Assembly (NCBI GenBank): GCA_031370005.1
Contig: JANMPT010000028.1
Span: forward strand, 128,001-192,000
Reading direction: 5' to 3'
Length of the DNA: 64,000 bases
Origin: Bdellovibrionales bacterium
GTDB taxonomy: Bacteria; Bdellovibrionota; Bdellovibrionia; Bdellovibrionales; Bdellovibrionaceae
In this document: positions 12,138 to 32,670 of the stretch, piece by piece
Numbering within the stretch: the stretch's first letter is position 1
Layout: every line of letters starts with the position of its first letter
Position numbers and translations under genes: made by a program
Notes under the pieces: model-generated
What the model was told of the DNA's origin: nothing
Seen by the model: the letters and a program-made list of their open reading frames with translations, nothing else
The model's database searches: none

Positions 12138-12178
12138 ATTTCTCTTTTTTTTTCAATAACTTACAATTTCGATTTTTT

Positions 12179-13093: not shown

Positions 13094-13116
13094 ATCATTG
13101 GAGAAATGAGACGTTT

Positions 13117-13704
13117 ATGAACGCTTTAGAGAGAATGAAAAAATATCTAGTTCCAGGACAAGCCTATCGCAGAAGCGAGCTTGCCGCTCTTTCTTCAAAT
13201 GTTGATAGAAATCTCCATTCTCTAGTAAAGGAAGGTTTCCTAAAAAAACTCTCTACAGGTCTTTATCTCGCTCCTAAAAAAACAGCCTTTGGAGATGCTT
13301 TACCAGAAGAGAACTCTTTGCTTGAAACATTTCTCAACGACGACCATTTTGTTGTTTATAGCCCAAGTCAGTTCAACTCCCTGGGATTAGGCTCTACGCA
13401 ACTTTATAACTTAAGAGTAGTCTTCAATCGAAAAAGAACTGGCGAACTTACTGTTGGCGGCAGAACGTATTCTTTCAAACTTTGGAGAGAAGCTCCCAAG
13501 GCGTTGTCCGAAGAATTTTTAGTTGTTGAGTTGCTAAATAGAATAAATGAACTTGCCGAAGATCGCGAGGCTTTGCTTGCAAGACTTCGAGAAAAGCTTC
13601 CTACCTTCAATAAGGCGAAATTGCATAATGCTGCCAATCGCTTTGGAACTTTATCTGCTCAGAAAAAACTAAAAACGCTTCTACAAGATCAACAAAAGGC
13701 CTAA
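13117..13704 (+). CDS. AbiEi-like type IV antitoxin / transcriptional regulator
   Basis: N-terminal wHTH (L..LVKEG.LKKLSTGLY..P); directly upstream of an AbiEii gene. Confidence 0.8.
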   Translation: MNALERMKKYLVPGQAYRRSELAALSSNVDRNLHSLVKEGFLKKLSTGLYLAPKKTAFGDALPEENSLLETFLNDDHFVVYSPSQFNSLGLGSTQLYNLRVVFNRKRTGELTVGGRTYSFKLWREAPKALSEEFLVVELLNRINELAEDREALLARLREKLPTFNKAKLHNAANRFGTLSAQKKLKTLLQDQQKA

Positions 13705-13709
13705 AGACA

Positions 13710-14684: not shown

Positions 14685-15008
14685 TACATTTCGTTTTTAC
14701 TTTGATGCAATATCCATTCGAAAAAATTCATTTTCAGAAAATTAAATGCCAATTTCAATGTAGCAAAAAATAGAAAAGGGCCATTACGCAAAACCGTAAG
14801 GTGTTTCAATTTAACTCCTCAACAAAGAAAACGCCAATTCTTCACTCACACTTTTTCAAACATAAAGATCTCTATAACCCAAAAATGCAAATTACACATC
14901 AAAATGAAACTAGTTATGTAATGTTTTATATACTACGTGGGTCGGATAATCATGACACACCTTCTTGCCGAAGAGTCCGACTCTGAATATTGGCGTTGAT
15001 AAGCTTCA

Positions 15009-15134
15009 TTATTTCTTTGAAATCTTATTAATCAAGACAGCCAGCAAGACCACCACCAGGACGCCGATCACAGGCCAAATCCACATCCCTCCAACCATCG
15101 CACCATTCATCCAACCAACTCTATAATTCATCAT
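15009..15134 (-). CDS. Small 41-aa single-pass membrane protein
   Basis: Below ORF-track cutoff: MMNYRVGWMNGAMVGGMWIWPVIGVLVVVLLAVLINKISKK; Met/Gly-rich head, TM helix, basic tail. Confidence 0.7.
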   Translation of the reverse strand: MMNYRVGWMNGAMVGGMWIWPVIGVLVVVLLAVLINKISKK

Positions 15135-15323
15135 AAAGACCAACACTCTCTTTAGCGTATTTTATGAGACCCTATATTCCAGATCGCCAGTTCTTCAAAT
15201 CAACAATTAAAAGGCGAAAAGTCCTTTCGCTAAGGTTCTACGCTACTATGAAATTATTATGAAGATGTGATAAGTCGTTGCTGTTTTAAGCCAGAGCAAT
15301 GAAAAATCAGGTTAATTGGCACT

Positions 15324-18300: not shown

Positions 18301-18476
18301 TCAGGATCCAGAGCCCCCGTCTTTGCATTAATCATAACTTGTACATTAGTAATGTCTGGAACCGCATCAATCGGCAGTTTAGTTACCTCAAATAAACCCC
18401 ACAGGCTTCCTACAGCAAACATACCTACAATCCACGTACGGTTCTTGAATGTGGTTTCGATGATACTTTTAAACAT
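15324..18476 (-). CDS. CzcA-type heavy-metal RND efflux permease
   Basis: LPIDAVPDITNVQV; TM4 GAIDFGLLVDGSVVMIEN; GAEVQRPLATVVIGG. Confidence 0.93.
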   Translation of the reverse strand: MFKSIIETTFKNRTWIVGMFAVGSLWGLFEVTKLPIDAVPDITNVQVMINAKTGALDPEKIEKTVTSVVETEMSGLHGLEDIRSISKYGLSQVILVFKDGTDLYFVRQQVSQRLQNLRELLPEGVTPELAPVTTGLGEVVMYTVVARPGSDLEKTPEKQRLLYLRTIQDYIVRAQLKKVSGIAEVDSSGGYRKEIHVNADILAMEKYGITFEDLYKKLQTIGDSYGGGYIQENGRQIIVRASSKLPDLKIIEKIPIKIGVRGEVVPLSKVANVREDHSQRLGAATYNGRETVLGTALMYIGANSREVSIDVVEAINKLQLPDDVQIDVVYTRSFLVNQTIKTVAKSLAEGAALVIVVLLLLLGNFRASVLVALSIPVSMLFAFIGMRFFGISANLMSLGAIDFGLLVDGSVVMIENLLRRFEEQINPQSLSIAQKLELVKDSALEVAKPVVLGLFIIMVVYVPILALEGIEGKMFHPMAMTVLMALGASLLIAFMLMPILGFIFIKFPKSTGVHQEPKAFSAISRLYRPMLFFGIQNRNIVVSCAIGFALVCGFLFTHLGSDFIPQLDEGDLVIGLVRDTGIGIDESIKEQNKAEVIIRTFPEVDIAFSRMGTPESATDPMGVNFADTFIILKKDHDQWPKIKMEDGTVRARTKNELYEVIADRIKKELPGHEFSPSQPIEMRFNEILEGSRADVALRIFGPDLNKLVEYIDRSKEIIEKIEGVDESEMDALTALRKSPMLDINLNYEKMAKLGVSLSEANSTLQMAMGGIRVGNFHEADRRFPIILHLSEEQRESPKFIENIPIGLPDGGSVPLKSIASFDQTEQVTTIARSYSKRYAALSIFLKDRDVASFVTEAKKKIESELNLEKGYTLDWGGQFKNLEKARLRLLLIVPITLLIIFMILLKNFESIRLTLLVYSSIPLAVTGGILSLYLRGISFSISAGVGFIALLGIAILNSMVLVDFINQQRVKGVAVRDAVIFGATTRLRPVIMTALVAGLGFLPMALNTGMGAEVQRPLATVVIGGLISSTLLTLILLPALYIWLEEGKTK

Positions 18477-18479
18477 AAA

Positions 18480-19715
18480 TTATTTCTCCAAGAAAAGCTG
18501 CTCTTCACCGGTCAAAGTTTGCAAGTTCGAGATGCTTTTGACGACATCAAGTTGTGCATCAAAAATAGCAGATACGCTTTCAAAATGCTGAGTATCAGCC
18601 TCTAAATATGTTAAAAGATCAACTTGACCTCTCATAAAGCCGCGATCCGTTTCCCGAATCGATTTTTCCAGATCTTTCACTTTTTGAACCGCTAGCCCAG
18701 CTAACAACTTTTTTGCAAGCTGAAATTCTAAAAATGCTGAGTTAATACTTTTAAGGGTTTGCTCTTTTAAATAACTTAATCGCTCCCATTCTGATCTAAG
18801 CCTGAAGCTGGTCGCCGCCCTCGAGGCACGATTCGTATTAAAAAATGGCAAGGGAAATGAAACTCCCAATCCATAAATTTTCTCAGGACTATAACCTGAA
18901 CTAGCTGAATAACCTCCAGAAACGGTTAAGCTTGGCCACGACTCAACTTTTGCAAGTTCGACTTCATCTTTTGATTGTTGCAATTTAATATTTTGCACTT
19001 GCAATTCGAGACTGTTAGAGATCGCTCTCACGGTGAGATTTTGTATTGCTAAATCGGGCCCTTTTTCGTACCAAGAAATACTAATATCTGGTTCTGAAGT
19101 CAGCTTTAAATACGAATTAAGTTCATTCCAAAGATTCTCTTTTTGGCTTTGAATATGAAGCAGCTCTCTTTGCAAAACAAGTAGCTTCCCTACCACAATA
19201 CTCGCTTCAGTCTTTTTCTGAGGAGACGCAAAAACTCTGAACTTTAAAAAAGACTCGACTGTCTGAAATCTCACTAATCTTTCAGAGGCATAGCTAAACT
19301 TTTTCTTCGCTATTTCGTATTCATAAATTAAATTCAACAGCTTGGAACGTAGCTCAATCTCCTTATTTCTCAATTCAGCTTTGGCAATTTCAAAATCCCC
19401 ATGTGTTATCTTTTGCTTCGACGAAAACTTCCCAGGCATATACAAAGTCTGAGAAAAACCATAACGAATTAAGTCTGTATCTCCGCCAGGTTCTTTTTTA
19501 CTCTCCGTTGAAATATCAAATTTTGGATTTTCCCACTCAGCCGCTTGATCGGAAAGCTTTTGCTTCTCTTCAACAATCAAGCGCTGAGAGCTAATAAGAT
19601 AGCTATTTTTAAGACCTATCTCTATTAATTTAGCCGGAGTGACTGTTTCAGCACTGGCACTCGTCGCATGCCCAATGATACAAGTTAGAATAAATCTACG
19701 CACATTGATTCGCAT
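18480..19715 (-). CDS. TolC/CzcC-family outer membrane efflux protein
   Basis: Signal peptide, two OEP-like repeats, GVSFPLPFFNTNR; 3 nt from the RND start. Confidence 0.85.
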   Translation of the reverse strand: MRINVRRFILTCIIGHATSASAETVTPAKLIEIGLKNSYLISSQRLIVEEKQKLSDQAAEWENPKFDISTESKKEPGGDTDLIRYGFSQTLYMPGKFSSKQKITHGDFEIAKAELRNKEIELRSKLLNLIYEYEIAKKKFSYASERLVRFQTVESFLKFRVFASPQKKTEASIVVGKLLVLQRELLHIQSQKENLWNELNSYLKLTSEPDISISWYEKGPDLAIQNLTVRAISNSLELQVQNIKLQQSKDEVELAKVESWPSLTVSGGYSASSGYSPEKIYGLGVSFPLPFFNTNRASRAATSFRLRSEWERLSYLKEQTLKSINSAFLEFQLAKKLLAGLAVQKVKDLEKSIRETDRGFMRGQVDLLTYLEADTQHFESVSAIFDAQLDVVKSISNLQTLTGEEQLFLEK

Positions 19716-19795
19716 AATAATCCTCGGATTAATTGTTTAAAGATCAATACGAACGCCTTTTCGTGATCCAAATTTCATCTTTTATTTTAAAACAA

Positions 19796-20668
19796 CTAAA
19801 AGTTTGCAAGCATGCTCAAACTATAAGTTGTTTCTTCAGCTCGAAAAAATGTCGAAGCGATGCTTCTGCCAGCCGGCCTTTCCGCACCCTTTCTTATCGA
19901 AATGGAGTTCGTAATATCTGGAATTAACATCACCTTACCAAGGCTAATGTACATTCCGGTGCTGATATCAAGACTTTCATCTAAAAGCGTAAGACTGGAG
20001 GATCTGAAATCCTCCGTAGTGCCAACGCTTTGATAGATAGAAAATATATCAGAAAAATTATAAGAAAAGCTTCCCGCATGTATCCATGTACTGTGCGAAA
20101 AAACCTCGCTCCCATCAGGTCCAACTGCGGTGGGCAAGAATGACTGACGAGGATCCAAGTAATAAGTGAAGCTCCATTTTGGATCTATTGTCCAATTGAT
20201 AAATGCAGAGGCTCTGAGCTTTCCATTACTCCTATCTTGAATCGCTTTCTCCGTTGTTGGCAGGTAATACCAAATCACGGGAGCTACCTCGTCAGAGCCC
20301 CAGAATCCAGGAAGCCTTTGTGAATAGGTTAGAGTGGTAGTCGCCATATCAAACTTACTTCCCTTATCGACGTCGTTTAGATATGTAAAATACTGCCGCA
20401 TCCCAATTTTTGAATCTGAGCTGATCTTGTATGTCATACCGATGGCATTTACTGTATTAAGAGCCGCCCTAGAGTTTCGATCTCTAAGGTCATCGGCAGC
20501 AACCTGAAGAGCTGAAATAGCAAGAAAACCATAAGAAGATTTTTTACTTAGATCCCTCGTGTCCGCCCCTGAATTCTGAACGGTTGAAGAGGAGGACTGC
20601 GTAGAAACCTGTTGTGCAAACACTTGCGTAGACAAAAGAAGTCCAACTACAACGCCTATGGTTCTCAT
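19796..20668 (-). CDS. Hypothetical secreted protein, probable outer-membrane beta-barrel
   Basis: Signal peptide, alternating aromatic/hydrophobic strands, C-terminal YSLSMLANF. Confidence 0.6.
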   Translation of the reverse strand: MRTIGVVVGLLLSTQVFAQQVSTQSSSSTVQNSGADTRDLSKKSSYGFLAISALQVAADDLRDRNSRAALNTVNAIGMTYKISSDSKIGMRQYFTYLNDVDKGSKFDMATTTLTYSQRLPGFWGSDEVAPVIWYYLPTTEKAIQDRSNGKLRASAFINWTIDPKWSFTYYLDPRQSFLPTAVGPDGSEVFSHSTWIHAGSFSYNFSDIFSIYQSVGTTEDFRSSSLTLLDESLDISTGMYISLGKVMLIPDITNSISIRKGAERPAGRSIASTFFRAEETTYSLSMLANF

Positions 20669-21015
20669 TTAATTACCTCACGTTTTAGTAGTTCATATTC
20701 TGTGTTAGGCAAAATCGAGCCTTCATTAAACTCTACGGTAGAAATCTGATTATTTATACCCACAATTCTTCCGATTCCCCCAAGCTTTCTGAGGCAAGAT
20801 ATTCGCTCTCTATCCTTGAAGTAATGGGTTACGCAGTCCTTATTTAGGGCAGTCACTTCACGACCAACCAAAGCCTTATCATTTTCATCAAACTTAACCT
20901 GTACTTGTGTGACACCGTCTTTAAAGTAAATCGGTCTGGACTCTGGCGAATGTGAAAGCGTAGTGCATGCTCCTAGAAAAAATGGCAGCGTTAAAACTAT
21001 TATAAAATAATTCAC
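20665..21015 (-). CDS. Hypothetical lipoprotein
   Basis: Lipobox LGAC; GTG start after GGAG; ATGA overlap with next gene. Confidence 0.7.
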   Translation of the reverse strand: MNYFIIVLTLPFFLGACTTLSHSPESRPIYFKDGVTQVQVKFDENDKALVGREVTALNKDCVTHYFKDRERISCLRKLGGIGRIVGINNQISTVEFNEGSILPNTEYELLKREVIK

Positions 21016-21108
21016 GACATATCTCCGAATTAATATTTGGATGAAGTAAGACCTTCATCAATTTTTTAGATTTGACTAAACAATTAAACTAGCCTGTGTG
21101 AATGAAAA

Positions 21109-21444
21109 CTATGTTATCGGAGGCCTGACTAGGCCATCTATGGTGGGGCTTTCGTAGATCAAATTCCTTCCGTCCAAAATAAGCAAACTTAAGGACAGAA
21201 TTATAAAAACTGTTTTTCGTGGTACATCTGAAGCGCAGTGGCAAGCATGTCCGAAATGACAAGTATGACTTTCTGGGTGACAGTCGCCCTCCTCATGCTG
21301 AGGCCCATGCATTAGATTATCTGCAGCTACTACCGAGGCAATACTGTTGGCATCACTACCAAAAATTGGTTCACAATAACTGCCAGAGAAGCAGAATAGC
21401 AAAAAGATAATAAGCGATAAAGATAAGCTGATGGAATTACGCAT
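21109..21444 (-). CDS. His/Cys-rich exported small protein ending in RPP (CzcI/DUF2946-like)
   Basis: MRNSISLSLSLIIFLLFCF...HGPQHEEGDCHPESHTCHFGHACHC...SPTIDGLVRPPIT; TTGACA-N17-AATATT upstream. Confidence 0.7.
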   Translation of the reverse strand: MRNSISLSLSLIIFLLFCFSGSYCEPIFGSDANSIASVVAADNLMHGPQHEEGDCHPESHTCHFGHACHCASDVPRKTVFIILSLSLLILDGRNLIYESPTIDGLVRPPIT

Positions 21445-21771
21445 GTCATCCCACAATAAACAGATTATTTGTCTATTACAATCAATATTCATCTGCGCAA
21501 TCATTTTGTCAAATATGCCCAAAGGCAAAGGATCGTCGCTGAGCCAAATGACATTTTGGGTCGACAATTCCGCAACTTAGTTAATTTTTAAAAGTAAGCG
21601 CTGTGCCCCCTTTTTTAGAAACAATTGTATGTAAATACTCTATCTATAGAGTGCGTTGCGGCAGCGTCGGATGTTTATGAGGCAGGAGTGAGCTCCCCGT
21701 ATCAAAAGTGAATCTGAATTGCAATCACATACCGTAGCGGATAAAGTCGCCGCAAATCGGAGGAAGTACTG

Positions 21772-23043
21772 GTGAGTAACTTTCAACAAAGGACATTTCA
21801 TTTTCACATGCTGATTATGGTTGTCGCTTTTGTCTCAACCATAATTACATATTTCTTTGGCGCCAATGCCTTTGCTGATTCGCAACCACTTACTCTTAAT
21901 GCTGCAATTGATATAGCGAAACTTCAGAGTCCTGATAGGGCTTTGCTTAATGCAAACCGCGAATCACTCCTTGCGCAAAACAGAAGATCCCTTGCCCCTG
22001 CTCCCCCAAGCTTTGATCTTGGTCTTGGGGATATTGCCGCACGCCCCAGCGAAGAAAACTCAAGCCTTAGAACGTACCAACTAAGCCAGAGTTTTGGCTT
22101 CCCAGGAAAAGCCACTTCAGAAGCAAAAAGCTTCGAGCTTGAAGCTGAAAGTGTCCGCTACGATCTCGAGGCAAAGGATCGAGAGATCACGCGCCTTGTA
22201 CAAACTGCTTTCTATAGATTTTATCTTGCTAAAATGAAACTTCAGCTGATTGAGCTTAAAAAGTTGTCGTTTACCAAAATTCTTACGATTGCCAAACGAA
22301 GAATGGTGAAAAACACAACGACTGAAGTCGAATATCTCTCAACCCAAGGGGCCCTACAAAGTACTGAAAACGAAAAGGCAGATCTTGGATTGGAAGAAAA
22401 AAATGCACGTGTAGAGTTTAATATTCTTTTGGGAAGAGCTCCTGGCGCAGAGCTTAATGTTGAGTCCCCTCAAATACCCTCTTCCCCGTTTAAGCCAGAT
22501 CGCTCGAGATTAAAAGCTGCCTTCACACAAGAAAGTCCACAACTAAAAGCCTCAGAGCTGCTGATTAAGGCTTCTGAGTCTCGTGTGATTCAAGCAAAAC
22601 GAAGCTTACTTCCAGATTTTAAGCTCATGGTCGGAACTAATAACTATGGAGGGTTTGCGGGTAACATAGAGCTATCATTTCCGCTTTGGTACATCTGGGA
22701 CGAGAATGAGAATATTAAAAGCGCCCGGCAAATAACTCTCTTACAGCAAGCCAAGGCAGAATCCCTTAGACGACAGCTGATGCAGACTTTTGAGGAAAGA
22801 ATCAACAAGCTGGAGGCTTTAAGTAAAAAGATCGCAAACTATAAATCAGAACTTATTCCAACTTCGAAGCGTGCATTTGAGGTGGCGCTTAAGAATTATA
22901 ATTATGGAAAGATCGATTTTTCGACTTTTACAACGTCGACGAATACCTATGTCAACTCTCAGCTAGAGTACCAAGTCTTGCTCTCAGACTTTCTTATTGG
23001 AAAAGCACAGTTGGATGAAATGACCGTCGGTACCTTGCCATGA
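21772..23043 (+). CDS. TolC-family outer membrane efflux protein
   Basis: GTG after GGAGG; LSQSFGFPGK, ELSFPLW, NYNYGKIDF. Confidence 0.85.
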   Translation: MSNFQQRTFHFHMLIMVVAFVSTIITYFFGANAFADSQPLTLNAAIDIAKLQSPDRALLNANRESLLAQNRRSLAPAPPSFDLGLGDIAARPSEENSSLRTYQLSQSFGFPGKATSEAKSFELEAESVRYDLEAKDREITRLVQTAFYRFYLAKMKLQLIELKKLSFTKILTIAKRRMVKNTTTEVEYLSTQGALQSTENEKADLGLEEKNARVEFNILLGRAPGAELNVESPQIPSSPFKPDRSRLKAAFTQESPQLKASELLIKASESRVIQAKRSLLPDFKLMVGTNNYGGFAGNIELSFPLWYIWDENENIKSARQITLLQQAKAESLRRQLMQTFEERINKLEALSKKIANYKSELIPTSKRAFEVALKNYNYGKIDFSTFTTSTNTYVNSQLEYQVLLSDFLIGKAQLDEMTVGTLP

Positions 23044-23513
23044 AGTCAACTTTGAAAAGTATTTTATTCCCACCAGCTCTCTTGCTTATCTTTACCGCTC
23101 TCGCTATCTGGTCATTTCGTGTGAGCCGCCATGAGCTTGAGCAAGAGCAAGTGGGAGATACGCCTATACAGATTCCGTCAAGAGTTAAAAAAACTGACAG
23201 CGGGGAAACCGTAATCACTCTTGATGAAAATACTCAGCGGCTTATTGGAATAGAAATTAAAAGACTTCAGCTCGTGGGCGGTGAAATCGTATTCCCAGCT
23301 TCAGCTATTTTACATCAAGCCGGACAGACATGGGTTTATGTCCAAGTTAAACCTAATGAATTCATTCGCCGAGAGGTCCATCTAACACGAACGAAAAGTC
23401 CACATCGACTCATCAACCGAGACCTCTCTGCTCAAACTCCTGTTGTTTCCTCTGGCGCTGAGATTCTTCTTTCTGAGGAGTTCAAATCACAGATTCAACC
23501 GGGTGGGGACTAA
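23040..23513 (+). CDS. Miniature periplasmic adaptor (MFP)-like protein
   Basis: TM anchor, ITLDENTQRLIGIE joined directly to FPASAILHQAGQTWVYV...PVVSSGAEILLSEE; lies between TolC and RND genes. Confidence 0.7.
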   Translation: MKSTLKSILFPPALLLIFTALAIWSFRVSRHELEQEQVGDTPIQIPSRVKKTDSGETVITLDENTQRLIGIEIKRLQLVGGEIVFPASAILHQAGQTWVYVQVKPNEFIRREVHLTRTKSPHRLINRDLSAQTPVVSSGAEILLSEEFKSQIQPGGD

Positions 23514-23515
23514 AA

Positions 23516-26500
23516 ATGCTAAGACGTCTCATTCATTTTTCTATTCTTCATCAAGGTGTAACAATAACGTTGGCTATTCTGTTAACACTCTATGGCCTCT
23601 ATGCTACATCTCGCTCAAAAGTAGACATTTTTCCGGAGTTTGCTCCACCTCAGATTGTCGTGTTTACAAATGCCCCAGGGCTTTCTCCTGAGGAGGTAGA
23701 ACAGCTCGTTACTCGTCCCATCGAGACCGCAATTAATGGAGCGCCTAATCTTAAAACTTTACGTTCGCAATCAATTCAGGGAATTTCCTTTGTAACCGCC
23801 ATTTTCAATGAGCAAACGCAAATCATGCTTGCAAGGCAAGTTGTAGGAGAACGCCTTGCTGAGGTGGCCAGCAAACTCCCGCGAGGAATAAAGGCCCCCA
23901 TCATGGAGCCACTAACGAGCGCCATGAGTCTTGTTCTGATGGCGGGAATCACTTCCCAAACGAGAACTCTAAAAGACCTGCGCTCCCTTGCCGACTGGAC
24001 GCTTTTGCCCAGACTACTTGCAGTACCAGGCGTGGCAAAGGTTGTTATTTACGGTGGAGAAGTTCGCGAATTTCAAATTGAACTTCTTCCAGATCTAATG
24101 AAAGCTTTTGGTATTAGCTTTGATGAGATATTAGCTGGTGCATCACAAGCCACCGGCATTCGCGGCTCAGGTTTTATCGAAACCAAAAACCAAAGAATTA
24201 TCTTGAGATCCGAAGGGCAATCTCTCACTGCTGAAAAACTTGAAAATATTGTGATCCGCAGAACACCAGGCCTGAGCGTTAGGATCAAGGACGTTGCAAG
24301 GGTGGTGGATGGCTTTGCACCAAAAATTGGTGACGCCCAAATCCTAGGTCAATCCGGAATAATTCTGGCCATTTCCAGCCAGTATGGAGCGAACACGCTC
24401 CAGGTTGCAGAGGCGGTCAAAAAAAAATTTAATGACCTTGGCCCTTTACTCCAGGCGGAACAAGTTTCATTAAAACCAGATCTTTTCCAGCCTGCGGAAT
24501 TCATTCAAAAAGGAATCAGTAATGTCAAATCGTCACTCCTCTTGGGTGCCATTCTTGTAGTAAGTGTCTTATTTATTTTTCTTTGGAACCTGCGAATTTC
24601 ATTTATTTCCGCGACTGCCATTCCGCTTTCCTTACTGATCGCCATAGTGTTATTGGATTACATTGGCATTTCACTCAACACCATGACCCTTGGTGGACTG
24701 GCAATCGCTCTTGGTGAGGTTGTGGATGATGCGATCATAGACGTTGAAAATATTTTCCGACGGCTAAAAGAAAATGCAAAATTAAACGTACCAAAACAAC
24801 GACTAAAAGTAATTTTGAACGCTTCAATTGAAGTTCGCTCAGCGGTTGTATTTGCGACTTTTGTTGTTATCGTGGTCTTTCTTCCCGTAATTAACTTAAG
24901 TGGCATCCAAGGGAAGCTCTTTGCTCCCCTTGGATACGCCTATATTTTCTCTATCCTCGCCTCACTACTTGTAGCACTCACACTAACTCCAGCATTATCC
25001 TCCTTATTACTTGGCGCAAAGACACTCCGTCACGAGGAACCTACGGCGGTGAGCTGGTTAAAAAAAGTCTATCAACTCCACTTAGAACGTATTCTTGCAA
25101 AACCAAAACACATGATAATAATAGCGGTTACTCTTGTGCTGGCGTCTTTGGCGACAATTCCTTTCTTTGGCGGAGCCTTTCTTCCAGATTTTCAAGAGGG
25201 TCGTCTAATTATTCACATGGCACTTCTTCCTGGAACTTCGCTTTCTGAGTCGCAACGCTTTGGAAAACTCATAACGAAAGAGTTGCTCAAACTAACTGAA
25301 ATTCATTCCATATCTCAAATCACGGGTACTGCTGAGGCTTCAGATGATACACTCGGCACCTTTGAGAGTGAATTTCAAGTAGAGCTAAAACCCGATCAGA
25401 TAGAAAACACTGAGGCTGTCCAAGGAAAAATTAGACAGGTGCTCGCTAAATTCCCCGGAGCCTCATTTGCAATGAATACTTTTCTGACCGAGCGAATTGA
25501 GGAAACAATTTCTGGCTCAACCGCTCCAGTTGTAGTTCATATTTTCGGTGATGACTTAAAGATACTCGATCAAAAGTCAAAGGAAGTGGCCCGTCTTCTT
25601 GCGCACATTTCAGGTGCGACAGATGTTCGAATGGAGGCTCGTCCGACAATTCCAGAGGTTCATATTTCTTTAAAACCAGAGCGTTTAACAAGCCTTGGAT
25701 TTGAGCCCGACCTTGTCTTAAATGCTATACAGACAGCATACCAGGGCTCACCTGTGTCTGAAGTTTACCAAGGAAATCGGGTGACCCAAATTGTAGCGCT
25801 ACTTGATGCACATGTGCGAGCAGACCCAGAACAAATTGCAAGCCTACCAATTCGGAATACTGAAGGACGTTGGGTTGAATTAGGCGAGCTTGCTGATATA
25901 CGTGAAGACTCTGGCCGCTATAGCATTTTACATGAGAATACGAGCCGAAGAGCACTCGTAAGCTGTAATGTCATTGGACGTGATGTAACCTCATTCACAA
26001 AAGAACTCGAAATACGCCTTTTAAGGGAAGTCACTCTCCCAAATAACATGTACACTATTGTTTCCGGTGCAGCTGTAGCAAGATCACAAGCAAGCCATGA
26101 AATTCTTGTCCAAGCACTCCTTGCAGGAGGAATTATCATCCTGCTTTTATGGATCGTGTTTCAAAGTGCACGAAACCTCATTCTTGTTCTCATAAATTTG
26201 CCCTTCGCTTTTGTGGGTGGCCTGCTCGCTGTATTTTGCACAGGGGGTTGGCTCTCACTTGGATCACTCATCGGCTTTGTGAGTCTTTTTGGAATTACAA
26301 CTCGAAATTCCATCATGCTTATTTCCCACTATAAACACCTTGTACAAAAGGAAAATGCATCTTGGGACATTCGCACTGCCATTCGTGGAGCTACTGAGCG
26401 ACTTTTGCCCATTCTCATGACGGCCACAGTTACAGGGTTGGGACTTCTACCCCTCGCAATCGGAAGCGGAGCCTCCGGAAGAGAAATCGAAGGGCCGATG

Positions 26501-26635
26501 GCCATTGTTATTTTGGGCGGACTCCTCAGCTCCACAATACTGAATCTTCTCATGCTTCCCGCCTTAGCCCTTAGATACGGCCAATTTGACAAGCCTAAGT
26601 CGAGGGTCTCAAGCGCTTGTACTCAAGCCAAGTGA
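23516..26635 (+). CDS. CusA/CzcA-family RND efflux permease
   Basis: VDIFPEFAPPQ; TM4 GGLAIALGEVVDDAIIDVEN; GREIEGPMAIVILGG. Confidence 0.92.
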   Translation: MLRRLIHFSILHQGVTITLAILLTLYGLYATSRSKVDIFPEFAPPQIVVFTNAPGLSPEEVEQLVTRPIETAINGAPNLKTLRSQSIQGISFVTAIFNEQTQIMLARQVVGERLAEVASKLPRGIKAPIMEPLTSAMSLVLMAGITSQTRTLKDLRSLADWTLLPRLLAVPGVAKVVIYGGEVREFQIELLPDLMKAFGISFDEILAGASQATGIRGSGFIETKNQRIILRSEGQSLTAEKLENIVIRRTPGLSVRIKDVARVVDGFAPKIGDAQILGQSGIILAISSQYGANTLQVAEAVKKKFNDLGPLLQAEQVSLKPDLFQPAEFIQKGISNVKSSLLLGAILVVSVLFIFLWNLRISFISATAIPLSLLIAIVLLDYIGISLNTMTLGGLAIALGEVVDDAIIDVENIFRRLKENAKLNVPKQRLKVILNASIEVRSAVVFATFVVIVVFLPVINLSGIQGKLFAPLGYAYIFSILASLLVALTLTPALSSLLLGAKTLRHEEPTAVSWLKKVYQLHLERILAKPKHMIIIAVTLVLASLATIPFFGGAFLPDFQEGRLIIHMALLPGTSLSESQRFGKLITKELLKLTEIHSISQITGTAEASDDTLGTFESEFQVELKPDQIENTEAVQGKIRQVLAKFPGASFAMNTFLTERIEETISGSTAPVVVHIFGDDLKILDQKSKEVARLLAHISGATDVRMEARPTIPEVHISLKPERLTSLGFEPDLVLNAIQTAYQGSPVSEVYQGNRVTQIVALLDAHVRADPEQIASLPIRNTEGRWVELGELADIREDSGRYSILHENTSRRALVSCNVIGRDVTSFTKELEIRLLREVTLPNNMYTIVSGAAVARSQASHEILVQALLAGGIIILLLWIVFQSARNLILVLINLPFAFVGGLLAVFCTGGWLSLGSLIGFVSLFGITTRNSIMLISHYKHLVQKENASWDIRTAIRGATERLLPILMTATVTGLGLLPLAIGSGASGREIEGPMAIVILGGLLSSTILNLLMLPALALRYGQFDKPKSRVSSACTQAK

Positions 26636-27083
26636 GAATAATCACAAAGACATCAAGGAATGAAAGTACCAAGAGCCAGACTGAATGGGTGAGAGTATAG
26701 CGATAAACTTGGTAGATCAGGAATAGTCCAAACGCCACTATTGCAATTGGATAAGCCCAAAATTTCTTTCGCCATAGGGCCCACACCACTCCGACCTTAA
26801 TCACTCCATGCCACAACAAAAAGGCCGCCGCAAAGATTTTAGTACTCACTGATAGATGCTGAGCAGAGCGCAGGATCAAGCCAGCAACCAAATCATGTGG
26901 GTCCTCTATCAACTCATGTTGAGTGAATGCACCTAACAGCCCGTGGATCTGGCCGGGACTAACAAAAAATAGCAGAGCGCCACCGATAATTTCGAAAACG
27001 CCATCAACCGCTTTGCTGATGACCCCAATAACAAAGAGGATATGGACTATCTTGTTTCTCTTACTTATTTCCATAATAGCCAT
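26595..27083 (-). CDS. DUF2127-like membrane protein
   Basis: KAVDGVFEIIGG, HELIEDPHD, WAYP, YQVYRY, LTWLEY. Confidence 0.8.
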   Translation of the reverse strand: MAIMEISKRNKIVHILFVIGVISKAVDGVFEIIGGALLFFVSPGQIHGLLGAFTQHELIEDPHDLVAGLILRSAQHLSVSTKIFAAAFLLWHGVIKVGVVWALWRKKFWAYPIAIVAFGLFLIYQVYRYTLTHSVWLLVLSFLDVFVIILTWLEYKRLRPST

Positions 27084-27294
27084 CTTAAGCTTTGCCTCCA
27101 CCAAGGATAACGTTTTATTTCTAATTTCCGGTAAGTAAATTGAAACTGTGTGATTTCAACAGTCTTTGTGCCTTAGCAAATTGTTATTATTTAATTTAAC
27201 AAACCGATGAAAGATTCAGACGGTTCAATTGACTTGGATTTGTAGAATTGATTTTCTTGTGTTCTCAAACTTTAACGTTCACTGGTGCAAATTT

Positions 27295-28797
27295 ATGAAA
27301 ACAATTTTTAACTCAATTCTAGCGATCCTACTTGTACTTACAGGAGCAGGCATTGCACAGGCACAAGGGAAACTAAGTAGTAACAATGATACGCCGGTCG
27401 AAAAAGGTGGTCCCTATGATCGGGTTTATTACCCGAAAAATGCACCAGCTGCAGGTGAGGGCGCTTTTTTTCCTCAAGAATGGCTATATGCTTACGGCAA
27501 TATAGAGCGTAATGCGCCAGCACCCCAAGTACTTGATAGCGCTCCTGCTTGGGTCAGGGATGGGGTTTCTTGGCAGTTCGCTGAGGCGCGCTCATGGCCC
27601 CTTGCAAATAAATCCTACGACAGTTATGCGATTGGCGAAGCCAGTAGTGATACAACCATGACCCAGTGGATGGGAAATACGCTGGGAGTGACTGCAGTTG
27701 ATGGCATTATCTACGCACAAAGCAGTGATCAATTTATTTATGCGGTGAATGCCCAAACTGGAAAGCTCATCTGGCGCACCAGTCCTGTTAGCACAACCTT
27801 CATGGGACAGCCGCTTGTTCAAGGAGATATTGTATATGTAAATGCTGGAACGGTTGGCTTTAACTTCTCTAATATTCAAGCCTTTGCAAAAGTTGGCAGC
27901 GCAATTCGCGGTGCCGGCGTGGAGTTCAACGGCATTTATGCGCTGAACCGCCGGACGGGAGAATTACTGTGGCATTTCGATACCAAGGGCGATGCTATGC
28001 CGACACCTGCAATCAATGATGGGCAACTCATTTTTTCTACAGGTGCCGGTGAAGTATTCGCACTTGATTCAAAATCGGGTAAACAGCTATGGGTGAACAA
28101 GGTCGGCGGAATGGGCAATATGTCCAGTCCGGCAGTTTACAATAATAAAATTTACGTCGGCATGTCATCTCCGGCTTTCCTGTTTTGTCTTGATGCTAAA
28201 ACTGGCAAGACACTCTGGAAAGGGCAAATTCCACAAGCAGTTAATACTGGCATAGGAGATGTCTCTCCGGCGGTATCCGATGGGATTGTAGTAACAGATG
28301 CCGTCTCTTCCTCAAAAACCATCAATGGCAAAGACACCGTGGATGTTACGATCGGGGCATTCAACAGTGAAACTGGAAAACTACTGTGGACCCATAAGAT
28401 GGGACGCGGATCCAAACCTCCTGCCTTTAAAGGCGGTGTTCCGATGATTCATGACGGAACGGTATATGTCGGCGCGCCCGTCAAAAGCCTCTACCAGGCG
28501 CTCGATCTAAAAACTGGCAAGCTTCTCTGGACCTGGATGGTCCCAGAACCAGGACCTGCGGGCGCTGCACGCGGCCCTGCCACCTTCTATGACGGAGTAT
28601 TATACATTGCTACTGTTGGCTCCGTTTATGCTGTAAATCCAAAAACTGGTGTCCTCCTTGGTCAAAAACATATTGGCGGGCGCTTCGGCCTCGTTAGCCC
28701 AACCATCGTCGGTGGTACAATCTATCTAGGTAACTCATGGGACTGGATAATCGCGCTCCCCGTATCAGAGGTGAATCCAAATTGGCATCACCTGTAG
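27295..28797 (+). CDS. tetH: Tetrathionate hydrolase (TetH/Tth)-like secreted beta-propeller protein
   Basis: 500 aa, signal peptide; GVSWQFAEARSWPLAN, FNGIYALNR, GGMGNMSS, NTGIGDVSPA, PAFKGGVPMIH, IVGGTIYLGNSWDWI match the recalled Acidithiobacillus TetH sequence end to end. Confidence 0.85.
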   Translation: MKTIFNSILAILLVLTGAGIAQAQGKLSSNNDTPVEKGGPYDRVYYPKNAPAAGEGAFFPQEWLYAYGNIERNAPAPQVLDSAPAWVRDGVSWQFAEARSWPLANKSYDSYAIGEASSDTTMTQWMGNTLGVTAVDGIIYAQSSDQFIYAVNAQTGKLIWRTSPVSTTFMGQPLVQGDIVYVNAGTVGFNFSNIQAFAKVGSAIRGAGVEFNGIYALNRRTGELLWHFDTKGDAMPTPAINDGQLIFSTGAGEVFALDSKSGKQLWVNKVGGMGNMSSPAVYNNKIYVGMSSPAFLFCLDAKTGKTLWKGQIPQAVNTGIGDVSPAVSDGIVVTDAVSSSKTINGKDTVDVTIGAFNSETGKLLWTHKMGRGSKPPAFKGGVPMIHDGTVYVGAPVKSLYQALDLKTGKLLWTWMVPEPGPAGAARGPATFYDGVLYIATVGSVYAVNPKTGVLLGQKHIGGRFGLVSPTIVGGTIYLGNSWDWIIALPVSEVNPNWHHL

Positions 28798-28819
28798 TAT
28801 AAGCGCCTCGGCGCTTATA
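28798..28819. terminator. Hairpin between convergent genes
   Basis: TATAAGCGC-CTCG-GCGCTTATA. Confidence 0.6.
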
Positions 28820-28829: not shown

Positions 28830-29462
28830 TTACCTCTGCCCAAAGAAAAGAAAGAAGTCTTTATCATTGTATTTTTTCATAAAGAAATATTGATGGCCAT
28901 GCTTCATCTTTTTAGCTGCTTCCTGAATTGCAAGAGCTTTCAAACACCCCAAAGTAAGACGCTTTTCCTCAATGCAATAGGGGGGAACATCTTCTACTTT
29001 CGAAAACGGAACCCATGTTATATTAAAGTAATCCAGCCCTAAGGGGCGAACCTTCAGATCAATAAAGTCATTGAGGGTCAGCTCATTTGCCTTTTTATTT
29101 GGTAAAAGAAGCCAACAGGGCTTCGCGCAGGAGCGAATTTCCTCTGGGCTCGCCGTTTCGGCGTCTTCCAAGAGATGCACAGGAGTATGAAATATTTTTT
29201 CATACTCCGCCTTCAAAAGCTCAAGAACCTTCTGAGAGTCCTCTGACTGCGGCAGAAATCCCCAAATAACATAATGGGCACTCTGAAATTCAGGGGACAG
29301 GCGAAAAACAACTCCGTCAGCAATATTATGTAGATCCGGAGAAATTACAGAAACATCAATAATCGGTGCTGAACGAAGACTAACCCCGACCTTCACTAAA
29401 TAAATCATGCAGGCCGAAATTAACAAAAAAGCAATGGATAAAATAAGAACTATTTTTTTCAT
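28830..29462 (-). CDS. Hypothetical membrane-anchored protein
   Basis: 210-aa ORF, N-terminal TM, coupled to the upstream regulator. Confidence 0.7.
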   Translation of the reverse strand: MKKIVLILSIAFLLISACMIYLVKVGVSLRSAPIIDVSVISPDLHNIADGVVFRLSPEFQSAHYVIWGFLPQSEDSQKVLELLKAEYEKIFHTPVHLLEDAETASPEEIRSCAKPCWLLLPNKKANELTLNDFIDLKVRPLGLDYFNITWVPFSKVEDVPPYCIEEKRLTLGCLKALAIQEAAKKMKHGHQYFFMKKYNDKDFFLFFGQR

Positions 29463-30148
29463 TAAACGCGTTTTCTACTTCGCACCCAAAGTCGCAAAGG
29501 TGTAAGTTCTTTTTCACTCAATCCCACGAAATTTCCAGTAATTTTTCGAACACCATCCTGAGCCGGAATTTCTTCCGTAGAGACAACTCGCAGGGTTGGC
29601 ATCGGAATACCGATTTCTTTAAAAACTTCACTATGAACTTTAATCAAAGCGCCCGCTGCCGCATAAATATTGGATTGCATTGTGCAGCCGAACTCAGACA
29701 AAGATACGATTTCAGTCTTAGTCTCCAACTCCGCTTTTACGTGGATAGCCGCTTCGGCAAAGCGCGGAGGCTCTTGCTGGGCCTTATCAATAATATTTTT
29801 AATCTTTGCCAATAGAAGAGTAGGGTCAATCGGTTTAACAACATAATCATCAGCTCCCGCTTGGATACCCTTTTCAACATCTGTTTTCTCTCTTTTGCCA
29901 GTTAATAAAATCACCGGAAGACGAGCTAATTGCGGCTGACCTCTTATCGTTCGTAATAAGGCCAAACCTGTTCCTCCCACAGACATCACCACATCCGAGA
30001 TTACGAGATCAAAAGGCTCTTGACCTAAACGTGCCATGGCATCAATGGCGTTAGTGCAGGAGGTCACTAGGTGATTTTCACTTTTAAGCAATGCCTCTAG
30101 GGTCAACAAAACGCTTTGCTGATCATCGACAATAAGAATGTGTGCCAT
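29462..30148 (-). CDS. Response regulator with PilZ-like C-terminal domain
   Basis: ILIVDD, ISDVVM, GADDYVVKP; C-terminal SLSEFG. Confidence 0.85.
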   Translation of the reverse strand: MAHILIVDDQQSVLLTLEALLKSENHLVTSCTNAIDAMARLGQEPFDLVISDVVMSVGGTGLALLRTIRGQPQLARLPVILLTGKREKTDVEKGIQAGADDYVVKPIDPTLLLAKIKNIIDKAQQEPPRFAEAAIHVKAELETKTEIVSLSEFGCTMQSNIYAAAGALIKVHSEVFKEIGIPMPTLRVVSTEEIPAQDGVRKITGNFVGLSEKELTPLRLWVRSRKRV

Positions 30149-30159
30149 AAAAACTCCGC

Positions 30160-32670
30160 TTACGCCGCTACTCGAGTTGAGTACTTCTGCAACTCAAATA
30201 AACTTTTTGCCAGTTGATCATCAATTGAAACTAATAATGACTTGACCTCATCCAGGCTCGCAGCATCTTCGATAGTCTGACAAAGTTTTGCAAGGCCTGT
30301 CGCACCAAGTGTCGCACTGGTTGATTTTAACGCGTGCGCCGCCTCATGAATTTCAATTAGGTTACCCTTCTGAAAAGAAGAAGTGATAACATTCACCAAA
30401 TTTGGCGCAGTGCTCGCGAAATCCTCAATCAATGCTTCTGTGAGACTCTTGTTGTTTACAACAAATTTACGAAGCTTCTCTAATGCCGCTTCATCTATAA
30501 CTTTCGGCGAAGTTTTTAGCCAGCGATGTAGCACCTTGGTCAAACGATCTAGCTCTAGGGGCTTAGTTAGAAAATCATCCATACCGACGGCAAAACAAAT
30601 ATTCCGTTCACCACTGGCTCCTTCCGCCGTCAACGCAATTATTGGTATTTTCTCGCCCGTCTGTACTTCACGAATTTTTTTCGTGGCGTCATAACCCGTC
30701 ATAACTGGCATCTGGCAATCCATAAACACGAGATCATAGGAGTTCTGCTGAATTTTTTCTACTGCGATCTGTCCATTATTGGCTACATCTACCTCTAAAC
30801 CTAATTTCTGCAAATAAGTTACGGCCACTCGCTGGTTAACTAGCTGATCTTCGGCCAAGAGGACACGACCTTTAAAAATCGGTGCGAAATGGCTTTCTTT
30901 CTCAACCGAAATTTGGTCTAAGGCGGCTTCTGGCAACTCAAGATTAAACCAGAATGTAGACCCCAAACCCACCTTACTATGAAGTCCAATCTGCCCACCC
31001 ATCAATTCAATAAGCTGGCGACAAATTGAAAGACCCAGACCAGTTCCTCCGAATTTCATACCTGATTTAGTCTGAAAGTACTTTTGAAAAAGTGACTGAC
31101 TCTCGTCCTCAGTCATTCCAGCACCCGTGTCCATCACGGAGATTTTAAGGCTGGATTTCTGCGCGTAGGACCTTACACACTCCACAGTAATACGAATATG
31201 ACCGCGCTCCGTAAACTTTACTGCATTGCCGATAAGGTTCACCATGACTTGGCGTAACCTTTCAGGATCAGCTACAAATGCCCACTCATCGCGGCCGAGA
31301 AAGCTGATCTCAAGGCCAATATTCTTTTCTTGAACTGTTGGGAAAAAAAGCTCTAAAACATCTTCACAAAGAAATTTTAAATCGAATGATCGCGGGTTTA
31401 TTTGAATCTTACCAGCTTCAATTTTCGAGTGGTCCAAGATGTCATTGATCAACCTTAAAAGGGCCTCTGCGGATCTTTTGATGATTCCCACATAGTCTTT
31501 TTGCTCTTCAGTCAGCGAGGTTTCAGCTAATAAAGTCGACATCCCCATCACACCGTTCATCGGTGTGCGAATTTCGTGGCTCATGGCCGCCAAAAAATCA
31601 GATTTCTTTCGAGCAGTGTCTAACGCAGATTCACGGGCTCTTAGCCACTCCTGCTCTGTTGCTTTACGGCGACTAATGTCACGAAACACGACAAGAGCAC
31701 CGCGAATACTGCCATCGATATCACGAAGATACCGACTGCTAATGCTGATGTAAATACCCTCAGGGTTTACCTCGTTTTGTACAAAGATCTCAAGATCTTC
31801 AACCTGCTCTCCGCGCAGTGCGCGAGCAAATGGAAGCTCCAACAGACCAATTTGCTTTAAACTATTGATTTCAAAAAAACCAAACTCCTTGGCATCTGTA
31901 TCCGAAGAAATACTTTTAATTTTATTTCCGATAATCCGCTGAGCTGCTGTATTGTAGCGGGTAAAATAACCCCTCTCATCAACAACGATCAAGGCCTCAC
32001 TAATACTATTTAGAATTCCATCTAAGAGAATTGACTGAATTTTTAGATCTGAGATATCTTTCTTCTGCTCCTTAAAGGAGTTCTCTTGCAAATAGCGACT
32101 CATCAGTATGCAATAACAAGAAACCACAAGCCCCAATAAAAAATACCAAAGCGCAGCTGGCAGTGTCATGCCAAAAAGACTCAATGGCTGTGACGTATTT
32201 TCACGTATGTCCTTGATCATGCCGTCCAAAAGAACAACCACCTCGCCGGACTCTGGCACTCCAGCCACAACCCGATCACCGTGGGACCTGCCGCTTTGTT
32301 TTCTCTCGAGCCTTTCATTTAGGCCCAAAAAATAAGACCGAGATTTTTTCTGAATCTCAACGAATTTTTTTTGTTGCTCAGGAATCTTTTTAAAGCTGTC
32401 TGACAATTCGCTAAAACGCCGTGCGAGCTGGACAATCTCTAGATTATAATCATCTAGATCTTTACTTCTGCCATTCGTCAAATACTGCGCGCTATTTTTT
32501 GCGGCCTGATTAATACGTTGGCGCGTTTCAAGAAGTAAAGAAAGACTATAAATATCTGACTTTGAGGTGTTCTCTTGGAAGTAATAGAAACTTGATGCAA
32601 CAATTAACAGTACCCCGAATTGGGTTCCGAAACGTCTTAATAAAAAATGGAATAACGAAGACTTATCCAT
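30160..32670 (-). CDS. Hybrid sensor histidine kinase (PAS-HisKA-HATPase-REC-Hpt)
   Basis: MSHEIRTPMNG, NLIGNAVKFT, GGTGLGLSI, FMDCQMP, AAHALKS. Confidence 0.93.
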   Translation of the reverse strand: MDKSSLFHFLLRRFGTQFGVLLIVASSFYYFQENTSKSDIYSLSLLLETRQRINQAAKNSAQYLTNGRSKDLDDYNLEIVQLARRFSELSDSFKKIPEQQKKFVEIQKKSRSYFLGLNERLERKQSGRSHGDRVVAGVPESGEVVVLLDGMIKDIRENTSQPLSLFGMTLPAALWYFLLGLVVSCYCILMSRYLQENSFKEQKKDISDLKIQSILLDGILNSISEALIVVDERGYFTRYNTAAQRIIGNKIKSISSDTDAKEFGFFEINSLKQIGLLELPFARALRGEQVEDLEIFVQNEVNPEGIYISISSRYLRDIDGSIRGALVVFRDISRRKATEQEWLRARESALDTARKKSDFLAAMSHEIRTPMNGVMGMSTLLAETSLTEEQKDYVGIIKRSAEALLRLINDILDHSKIEAGKIQINPRSFDLKFLCEDVLELFFPTVQEKNIGLEISFLGRDEWAFVADPERLRQVMVNLIGNAVKFTERGHIRITVECVRSYAQKSSLKISVMDTGAGMTEDESQSLFQKYFQTKSGMKFGGTGLGLSICRQLIELMGGQIGLHSKVGLGSTFWFNLELPEAALDQISVEKESHFAPIFKGRVLLAEDQLVNQRVAVTYLQKLGLEVDVANNGQIAVEKIQQNSYDLVFMDCQMPVMTGYDATKKIREVQTGEKIPIIALTAEGASGERNICFAVGMDDFLTKPLELDRLTKVLHRWLKTSPKVIDEAALEKLRKFVVNNKSLTEALIEDFASTAPNLVNVITSSFQKGNLIEIHEAAHALKSTSATLGATGLAKLCQTIEDAASLDEVKSLLVSIDDQLAKSLFELQKYSTRVAA

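Follow-up and report, generated by a model that had tools for sequence, protein, structure and literature searches.

We analysed the 64,000-nucleotide stretch at positions 128,001 to 192,000 of contig JANMPT010000028.1 (assembly GCA_031370005.1, Bdellovibrionales bacterium; hereafter the window) and found that its open reading frame at 27295-28797 is, judged by its sequence, a real full-length orthologue of tetrathionate hydrolase (TetH), with a similarity to the characterised enzyme far beyond chance. The gene, tetH, was horizontally acquired from a Pseudomonadota donor, and the same genome holds two further insertions with genes of thiosulfate metabolism that stand beside tetH in other organisms. 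On balance, we consider it probable that TetH is part of an acquired, physically split S4-intermediate pathway of thiosulfate oxidation. The enzyme family is a known one and its host is unexpected: Bdellovibrio-like bacteria are regarded as strict organoheterotrophs living on prey, and the interest of the finding is the dispersed foreign toolkit of the S4-intermediate type in a Bdellovibrio-like genome.

Sequence, fold and origin of TetH

The tetH frame is intact, running from an ATG at 27295 to a stop codon at 28795-28797 and encoding 500 amino acids. An alternative, longer start at TTG 27229 is unlikely, because the nearest homologues begin with MKT as well. By reading, the N-terminus comprises a basic residue, a hydrophobic core and an AQA-Q junction, and the homologues share an N-terminus of this type. 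A phmmer search against all PDB chain sequences returned as best match 6l8a_A, the tetrathionate hydrolase of Acidithiobacillus ferrooxidans (Af-Tth; E = 3.7e-159, 533.8 bits), in a single uninterrupted alignment of query residues 33-493 to chain residues 7-466, with an identity of about 50-60%; the next unrelated family, BamB, followed at 1e-14. The preliminary description of this stretch, made from its letters, had proposed a full-length TetH homologue that shares with Af-Tth the long non-repeat motifs GVSW.F.EAR.WPLAN, PAFKGGVPMIH and NSWDWI, as well as a lone Cys followed, 24 residues on, by the catalytic Asp. The end-to-end match bears out the first of these points, the motifs are all aligned between the two proteins, and the codons of Cys298 and Asp322 lie exactly where they had been placed, 24 residues apart.

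In Af-Tth, whose sole Cys is Cys301, Asp325 is essential (PMC10859504; this and the other papers cited here are quoted from partial text). In the alignment to the D325N mutant entry, 7cqy, the substituted residue (gigNvspa) stands opposite the Asp of the query (gigDvspa), and TetH Asp322 therefore aligns with Asp325, as had been supposed. Asp322 is invariant in 24 of 24 aligned sequences, as are G319, G321, V323 and P325. The likeness of the lone Cys to Cys301 holds for its presence and not for its functional weight: the C301A variant of Af-Tth is active and Cys301 is more than 25 Å from the site (PMC10859504), and the Cys298 column is variable in the 24-sequence alignment. TetH has in common with Af-Tth (6L8A; 7CQY) its length class, colinearity over residues 33-493, a predicted eight-bladed propeller with insertion loops, a putative N-terminal export signal, the catalytic Asp within NTGIGDVSPA and a single non-essential Cys at equal spacing.

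The fold was modelled with AlphaFold2 from the 24-sequence alignment (pLDDT 79, pTM 0.83). Two segments, 100-127 and 187-210, fall under pLDDT 50 and are probably the insertion loops. The preliminary description had suggested superposing such a model on the Af-Tth structure; in Foldseek, the top 12 PDB matches are all Af-Tth chains, with a template modelling score of 0.88-0.91 on the target, and BamB comes next at about 0.7. The predicted structure of TetH is an eight-bladed beta-propeller like that of Af-Tth, loop geometry excepted.

The description had also expected that automated annotation would give no more than a PQQ-repeat protein, and this is what we found. Pfam places PQQ_2 alone on the protein (155 bits) and nothing in NCBIfam exceeds its cut-off, so routine annotation misses TetH; the homologues are named in databases 'PQQ-like repeat protein', 'BamB' or 'polyvinyl alcohol dehydrogenase'. 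We rejected an identity as BamB (TIGR03300, 99 bits against a cut-off of 285; NF008351, 98 against 423; a signal region without Cys) and as a PQQ-dependent alcohol dehydrogenase (TIGR03075, 88 bits against 480). BamB and other PQQ_2 propellers have the repeat type in common with TetH, whereas BamB matches it partially only, at about 1e-12 to 1e-14. tetH is a clean example of mislabelling by routine annotation.

The host is Bdellovibrio-like, as first described: KdsA (KDO-8-P synthase), encoded at 37039-37890 of the window, shares 92-94% identity with proteins that carry the names Bdellovibrio sp. or Pseudobdellovibrionaceae. The window lies within a 259-kb contig (C94) of a 3.2-Mb genome (G000) in 123 contigs, 99.8% complete and 1.1% contaminated, and the best-matching public DNA run, which may be the source sample, is labelled freshwater sediment metagenome. 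tetH is single-copy in this genome; the next-best match, a 394-residue open frame on contig C7, is 29-35% identical over short stretches only. Among 60 relatives (36 of the same family, including six of the same genus, and 24 of the order) none has tetH at E <=1e-30, and none of 400 other genomes of the phylum has it at E <=1e-40, so that with its own genome included the gene is present in one of 401 genomes and one of 203 genera.

Outside the phylum, a collection of 5.8 billion proteins yielded 314 proteins at E <=1e-20 among the 8000 candidates scored. The 23 closest are 67-88% identical and nearly all unnamed metagenome proteins, and the proteins of acidophiles are 50-57% identical. A search of metagenome contigs with TetH gave three fragments only, which were uninformative. 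From species-representative genomes we took the best 80 of 167 matching stretches, corresponding to 79 loci, and built a tree of 101 rows with the quick search of IQ-TREE under LG+C20, rooted at the midpoint. It comprises 78 of the 79 loci (L071, with a match below 400 amino acids, was left out), 22 of the 23 metagenome proteins (P0019, short, was left out) and the window protein. The latter is nested in a 30-row clade (SH-aLRT 99) whose seven named members are all Pseudomonadota, namely two Betaproteobacteria metagenome-assembled genomes (MAGs), a Thiobacillus MAG, a groundwater Gammaproteobacteria MAG, a Pseudomonadota MAG, an Acetobacteraceae MAG and, on a long branch, Sphingobium faniae. 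Other clades hold Bacteroidota and Ignavibacteriota; Sulfuriferula and Thermithiobacillus; and the acidophiles Acidithiobacillus, Nitrospirota and Acidiferrobacter. TetH is 77-88% identical to loci of the Pseudomonadota clade (L006 and L007, Betaproteobacteria; L010, Thiobacillus sp.; L008, Gammaproteobacteria). Because the gene has no carriers among the 60 relatives and the 400 phylum genomes and is nested among Pseudomonadota, its origin is foreign: tetH was horizontally acquired from a Betaproteobacteria- or Thiobacillus-like donor, transfer into the Bdellovibrio-like lineage being the parsimonious direction. Horizontal acquisition had been proposed from the outset; the accompanying idea that prey was the donor is pure conjecture.

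Thiosulfate genes at other tetH loci and in the host genome

The neighbours of tetH were scanned against Pfam in 14 loci, and all 79 loci were then searched with the proteins found. TsdA, TsdB, ccoN or SoxB-like genes stand beside tetH in 16 of the 79: all seven named loci of the window's clade and all nine of the Bacteroidota/Ignavibacteriota clade, with none in the other 63. The full order in L008 and L010 is cytochrome c (TsdB), TsdA, CcoN-like, CcoO/P-like and tetH, and a SoxB-like gene of the 5'-nucleotidase family lies downstream of tetH in L006, L007, L010 and L072, directly after it in L006 and L072. Of the loci that combine tetH with the tsdBA-cco genes, L010, from the Thiobacillus MAG, is the nearest to the window's gene. 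In L007, a Betaproteobacteria MAG, a 2526-aa open reading frame precedes tetH in place of tsdBA-cco (L007:20-7600).

The window's own genome carries the same genes on another contig: tsdB-tsdA-ccoN-ccoO at C31:44005-48398 (tsdB-tsdA spanning C31:44005-45689), 60-76% identical to those of L008 and L010. They lie in a 4.7-kb insertion (C31:44005-48604, equal to L094:15125-19724) that also holds a 70-aa membrane open reading frame. The TsdA-like protein matches 5lo9, a TsdBA fusion, at E = 7e-79 and the TsdA of A. vinosum at about 2e-45; the haem motif, CxxCH, is aligned, as is the cysteine motif 'qgCf.ysmn', and the cytochrome that precedes it matches the TsdB half of 5lo9. Contig C31 has 70-80% DNA identity to all five same-genus genomes up to C31:43955, where homology ends, and the GC content of the cluster is 0.52-0.53 against 0.436 for the genome; the contig is genuinely Bdellovibrio-like and the cluster in it a foreign insertion. 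The cluster is also rare: only two of the 60 relatives have TsdA-like genes, with 38-39% identity. C31 stops 280 bp past the cluster, not in tetH but in a 141-bp repeat that also occurs on C61 and C49.

A third insertion, of about 4 kb between native genes (L095, approximately 3730-7760) and absent from the same-genus genomes, contains a SoxB-like hydrolase of 482 aa at C81:118227-119675 (L095:6227-7675), adjoining a FeeM/PilZ gene. Its best PDB match is SoxB 2wdc (2.6e-45); it scores 333 bits with TIGR04486, under the cut-off of 550, begins at about model position 110 and does not have the SoxB N-terminal region. The protein is 45-49% identical to the SoxB-like genes that follow tetH at a distance of a few kb in Bacteroidota loci, and a SoxB-like gene was found in one of the 60 relatives. 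A genome of the same family, G025, has TsdA-like (38%) and SoxB-like (34%) genes at C161:7813-8475 and C103:190-1620 and no TetH; accessory genes related to sulfur may be a recurrent feature of the family.

In the preliminary description tetH stood alone, with no doxDA or sox. This is true within the window and not of the genome, given the tsdB-tsdA genes with a cbb3-like oxidase on C31 and the SoxB-like gene on C81. The genome-wide search for doxDA, tsdA and sox that it had advised gave a mixed outcome: TsdA and TsdB were found, DoxD was not, and a complete Sox system was not encountered, SoxY and SoxZ being absent from the matches and the SoxB-like protein remaining below its cut-off.

This gene set can be placed beside three known arrangements. 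In the Pseudomonadota loci L008 and L010, tetH directly follows tsdB-tsdA-ccoN-ccoO, whereas here it is detached and sits in a metal-efflux island. The S4-intermediate pathway of Acidithiobacillus (DoxDA/TQO or TSD, then TetH) likewise combines a thiosulfate-oxidising enzyme with TetH, both predicted to be periplasmic; in the present genome, by contrast, the first enzyme would be the dihaem cytochrome TsdA with TsdB, not DoxDA, it has its own cbb3-like oxidase, and the genes are spread over three insertions, with no clustering of tetH with the thiosulfate genes. As in the TsdA-plus-SoxB thiosulfate pathway of Erythrobacter flavus 21-3 (PMC7608252), a TsdA and a SoxB-family hydrolase occur without SoxYZ, the differences being that TetH is additional here and that the SoxB-like protein falls short of the family cut-off.

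TsdA enzymes convert two thiosulfate to tetrathionate. In the pathway that we propose, the C31 TsdB-TsdA pair would oxidise thiosulfate to tetrathionate and, to judge from gene order, pass the electrons via TsdB to the adjacent cbb3-like haem-copper oxidase. TetH, predicted to be a Sec-exported, cofactor-free eight-bladed propeller enzyme, would then recycle the tetrathionate, returning part of the sulfur as thiosulfate and preventing build-up. For Af-Tth, Asp325 is described as protonating S-alpha of tetrathionate while water attacks the terminal sulfur, with release of sulfate and disulfane monosulfonate (PMC10859504); by homology, Asp322 would be the general acid that starts the cleavage to the same two products, and disulfane monosulfonate would decay to thiosulfate and sulfur. 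The C81 SoxB-like hydrolase may assist. The split pathway would constitute an extra respiratory electron source for an organoheterotrophic, probably predatory bacterium in freshwater sediment.

Such a role raises the matter of pH. Tetrathionate hydrolases (TTHs) are reported to have optima at pH 1-4, Af-Tth to be active only at acid pH and its recombinant form to require acid refolding, and the review states that TTHs have been purified from acidophiles only (PMC10859504). The TTH of M. cuprina, however, has its optimum at pH 6.0 and yields thiosulfate, pentathionate and hexathionate (PMC11818568). DoxAD and TetH are induced by thiosulfate in Methylovirgula thiovorans, which is not an extreme acidophile (PMC9371685), and a survey of neutrophilic sulfur oxidisers included tetH among the genes searched (PMC6397845). 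The earlier statement that TetH needs low pH consequently applies to most purified TTHs and not to that of M. cuprina, whose optimum makes a near-neutral one plausible, by analogy, for the window's clade. While Af-Tth comes from an acidophilic autotroph, the host of TetH is a Bdellovibrio-like organoheterotroph with a freshwater sediment label, and doxDA is neither adjoining tetH nor in its genome.

Composition differs as well. His residues number 6 in TetH and 11-15 in Acidithiobacillus proteins. By clade, the counts are 3-9 for that of the window, 11-18 for the rows of Acidithiobacillus and the Acidiferrobacter group and, in an overlapping range, 8-13 for Nitrospirota. Asp plus Glu amount to 35 in TetH, 29-40 in its clade and 18-24 in the Acidiferrobacter group. 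His and Asp+Glu composition is a possible marker of habitat pH among TetH proteins. The isoelectric point (pI) was rejected as a signature of acid adaptation: mature TetH has a pI of 7.2, and values of 5.4-10.2 across the clades give no clean split, the His count alone setting the window's clade apart from most of the acidophile rows.

The same features could mean that TetH has kept the fold and the Asp but acts on a substrate other than tetrathionate (higher polythionates, trithionate or organic polysulfanes, for example) or has a different product spectrum near neutral pH. The products of the M. cuprina enzyme and its peak at pH 6 (PMC11818568), the low His count of the clade against the acidophile rows and the 50-60% identity to Af-Tth, in a clade known from sequences, are in keeping with this. 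We judge it improbable, however, in view of the conserved NTG(I/M)GDVSPA motif, of the 97 columns invariant in 23 other TetH homologues, all 97 of which are kept in the window protein, and of the linkage in the donor clade to TsdA, whose product is tetrathionate.

The tetH island and its integrity

The preliminary description had placed tetH at the edge of a metal-resistance island, and the comparison with relatives agrees: CusA/CzcA-type efflux genes lie within the island and tetH is terminal (Table 1). DNA homology to the same-genus genomes reaches the tRNA-Arg gene and is then followed by nothing substantial until past tetH; synteny with the tetH-less genome G001 restarts at 28830 and continues to 40188, at 59-92% protein identity; and the DUF2127 gene is present in none of 40 family relatives. 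tetH therefore closes an island of about 16.7 kb. A clean empty site could not be defined in G001, the genomes being rearranged beyond the 210-aa gene.

Table 1. Coordinates of tetH, its island and the adjoining genes in the window
Feature	Position	Strand	Basis or remark
tetH, tetrathionate hydrolase orthologue, 500 aa	27295..28797	+	open frame, PDB phmmer, alignment, AlphaFold2 and Foldseek
TetH N-terminus, MKTIFNSILAILLVLTGAGIAQA, then QGK; signal-peptide-like	27295..27363	+	read directly from sequence; without lipobox Cys
Asp322 codon, GAT, in NTGIGDVSPA	28258..28260	+	equivalent of Af-Tth catalytic Asp325 by alignment
Cys298 codon, sole Cys of TetH, in LFCLDA	28186..28188	+	not expected to matter for catalysis
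Accessory island, about 16.7 kb, tetH its last gene	12140..28810		absent at DNA level from 5/5 same-genus genomes
tRNA-Arg(TCT), left border of island	12061..12137	+	85% identical in same-genus genomes
Efflux set 1: CusA/CzcA-type RND pump (1050 aa) and outer-membrane factor	15324..19715	-	TIGR00914 1064 bits, cut-off 701
Efflux set 2: outer-membrane factor, 157-aa ORF, CusA/CzcA-like RND pump (1039 aa)	21772..26635	+	TIGR00914 670 bits, just under 701; best family
DUF2127 membrane protein, divergent from tetH	26595..27104	-	island member
Native genes: 210-aa ORF (28830-29462), response regulator, hybrid histidine kinase	28830..32670	-	59%, 81% and 72% aa identity, syntenic in tetH-less G001
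Hairpin with 9-bp stem between tetH and convergent 210-aa gene	28798..28819		RNAfold -13.5 kcal/mol; no T-run
Decayed copy of last 12 codons of tetH	21692..21728	+	31/37 nt identical to 28755-28791; upstream of efflux set 2

No dedicated two-component regulator was seen adjoining tetH, a genome search for the RsrRS and TcsRS types not having been made; the response regulator and hybrid kinase beyond it are native and occur in the tetH-less G001, and are therefore not RsrRS-like regulators of tetH. A consensus scan around tetH returned no terminator and one promoter-like site, on the wrong strand and inside the gene, fewer than in shuffles. The hairpin past the stop codon is a possible bidirectional terminator.

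Similarity in the decayed copy of the tetH 3' end runs through to the stop codon, and in 12 of 12 shuffles the best 37-nt window had 28 matches or fewer. The copy and its source (21692-21728 and 28755-28791) are direct repeats that bracket a 7063-bp unit comprising the outer-membrane factor, the 157-aa open reading frame, the RND pump, DUF2127 and tetH, which suggests an old duplication, or integration of this unit via the tetH 3' end. The copy at 21692-21728 is given by the assembly, the run contigs described below leaving 20500-22500 uncovered.

Several other elements were observed at the tRNA end. The intact tRNA-Arg(TCT) is preceded, 134 bp upstream, by a partial copy of itself (11927-11984; the 5' 58 nt, 81% identical). 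The stop-to-stop open reading frames of at least 35 aa at 12138-13120 were inspected by eye, with no Pfam scan made, and none resembled an integrase. The 128-aa product of the first island frame (12501-12887, forward strand) begins like a signal peptide, contains a haem-c motif, CGVCH (CxxCH), and matches nothing in Pfam or NCBIfam; possibly it is a small periplasmic cytochrome. An AbiEi/AbiEii pair follows at 13117-14684 (forward strand), consisting of a DUF6088 AbiEi-like protein (23.8 bits, Pfam cut-off 25) and an AbiEii nucleotidyltransferase toxin.

tetH itself looks functional and appears to be retained under purifying selection. Pairwise ratios of nonsynonymous to synonymous substitution (dN/dS) against six close homologues are 0.025-0.129, a pairwise value that cannot isolate the host branch. 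The GC content at third codon positions (GC3) is 0.44, close to the host mean of 0.42 (sd 0.08, 1425 long open reading frames) and below the 0.57-0.65 of the closest named homologues, from Pseudomonadota; this suggests long residence in a host-like genome without decay, or a low-GC donor. That tetH is instead a silent passenger on the metal-efflux island with no role in the host (if, for instance, the periplasmic pH leaves the enzyme inactive) is very improbable. The acid optima of characterised TTHs and the acid refolding of recombinant Af-Tth (PMC10859504) fit such a view, as do the want of a promoter-like site upstream and the decayed 3'-end copy, a mark of past rearrangement; the intact frame, the dN/dS of 0.03-0.13, which being pairwise leaves recent relaxation possible, the 97 retained invariant columns and the host-like GC3 speak for a gene that has been kept.

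Assembly continuity across 27-29 kb, a check that the preliminary description had named, was examined with run X1. A 5163-nt unitig joins the second RND gene, DUF2127 and the first 690 nt of tetH, and the tetH 3' end lies together with the native genes on a 30.9-kb contig, with a depth of 10-11 on either side. Both junctions of the gene are thus bridged, while within tetH the unitig chain breaks three times and 27987-28740 is not covered by any one contig. X1, being probably the source sample, provides a consistency check, not independent proof; run X2 holds a small share of the words, in scattered pieces of 150-190 nt only. The X1 unitigs across 27958-28783 include low-depth variants that differ by one or two letters, and the 38-nt unitig at 27958-27995 has a depth of 21.6 against 10-11, which could be strain microdiversity or a conserved stretch common to another tetH in the sample.

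We consider it extremely improbable that the locus is an assembly or binning artefact in which the tetH of a betaproteobacterium was wrongly joined to a Bdellovibrio-like contig. A bin in 123 contigs, the unspanned interval with its three breaks, the short piece at about double depth and the non-independence of X1 speak for such an error. Against it stand the two bridging assemblies at equal depth; GC3 is moreover host-like all along tetH (0.34-0.50), without a step, unlike that of the closest named homologues, and identity to the nearest homologue shows no step either. Both island flanks match same-genus genomes on the 259-kb contig.

The proposed split pathway and its possible meaning for Bdellovibrio-like bacteria

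Several observations weigh against the split S4-intermediate pathway. tetH (C94) and the tsdBA-oxidase cluster (C31) are unlinked, on separate contigs, and differ in GC3 (0.44 against 0.47-0.56), so that separate acquisitions fit as well as co-transfer. SoxY, SoxZ, DoxD and a Mo sulfite oxidase were not found in the genome, which leaves no route for the sulfur product, SQR, sulfur dioxygenase, rhodanese and tetrathionate reductase not having been searched for. Apart from that of M. cuprina (PMC11818568), purified TTHs have acid optima, and Af-Tth is active at acid pH only (PMC10859504). Upstream of tetH the consensus scan gave no promoter, and the genome is a 123-contig metagenome bin.

Some of these points would suit a stand-alone enzyme, unconnected with respiration, that detoxifies polythionates or scavenges sulfur, acting on a substrate of abiotic origin or from neighbours or prey. 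tetH looks monocistronic, between the divergent DUF2127 gene and a convergent native gene; generic RND and two-component matches apart, none of 11 neighbouring proteins in the window accompanies tetH at the 79 loci; the gene travels with heavy-metal efflux genes, as would suit a stress island; and its composition is unlike that of the C31 cluster. We nevertheless regard this explanation as unlikely, since the same genome has foreign tsdBA genes with a dedicated oxidase that are rare among relatives (two of 60, and distant) and are the direct neighbours of tetH in the donor clade. Chance co-occurrence is unlikely because tsdBA-oxidase and tetH are both so rare among Bdellovibrio-like genomes.

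Beyond the split S4-intermediate pathway itself, we put forward more tentatively, and with some doubt, that at least three separate horizontal acquisitions have built a lithoheterotrophic module, made up of TsdBA with its own cbb3-like oxidase, a near-neutral TetH and the SoxB-like hydrolase, with which thiosulfate would be respired between prey encounters. Our literature search, mostly at title level and with subscription journals outside its scope, found no report of tetH in Bdellovibrio or of a tsdBA-cco-tetH cluster.

The clade to which the window's TetH belongs is of wider interest. Nearly all assayed TTHs are from acidophiles (PMC10859504), and its members are direct candidates for the tetrathionate-degrading enzyme of non-acid habitats. 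Within tetH loci, Thiobacillus-like and groundwater genomes show linkage to tsdBA plus a haem-copper oxidase, and Bacteroidota to tsdA together with SoxB-like genes. If the reading is true, it would be the first evidence for the tsdBA-cco-tetH clade of non-acidophiles as a neutral-pH tetrathionate pathway.

For the host, three foreign pieces of a thiosulfate/tetrathionate pathway kept under selection suggest an inorganic supplement to its energy supply. If true, Bdellovibrionota would have their first demonstrated inorganic energy source, and models of how these bacteria survive between prey would change.

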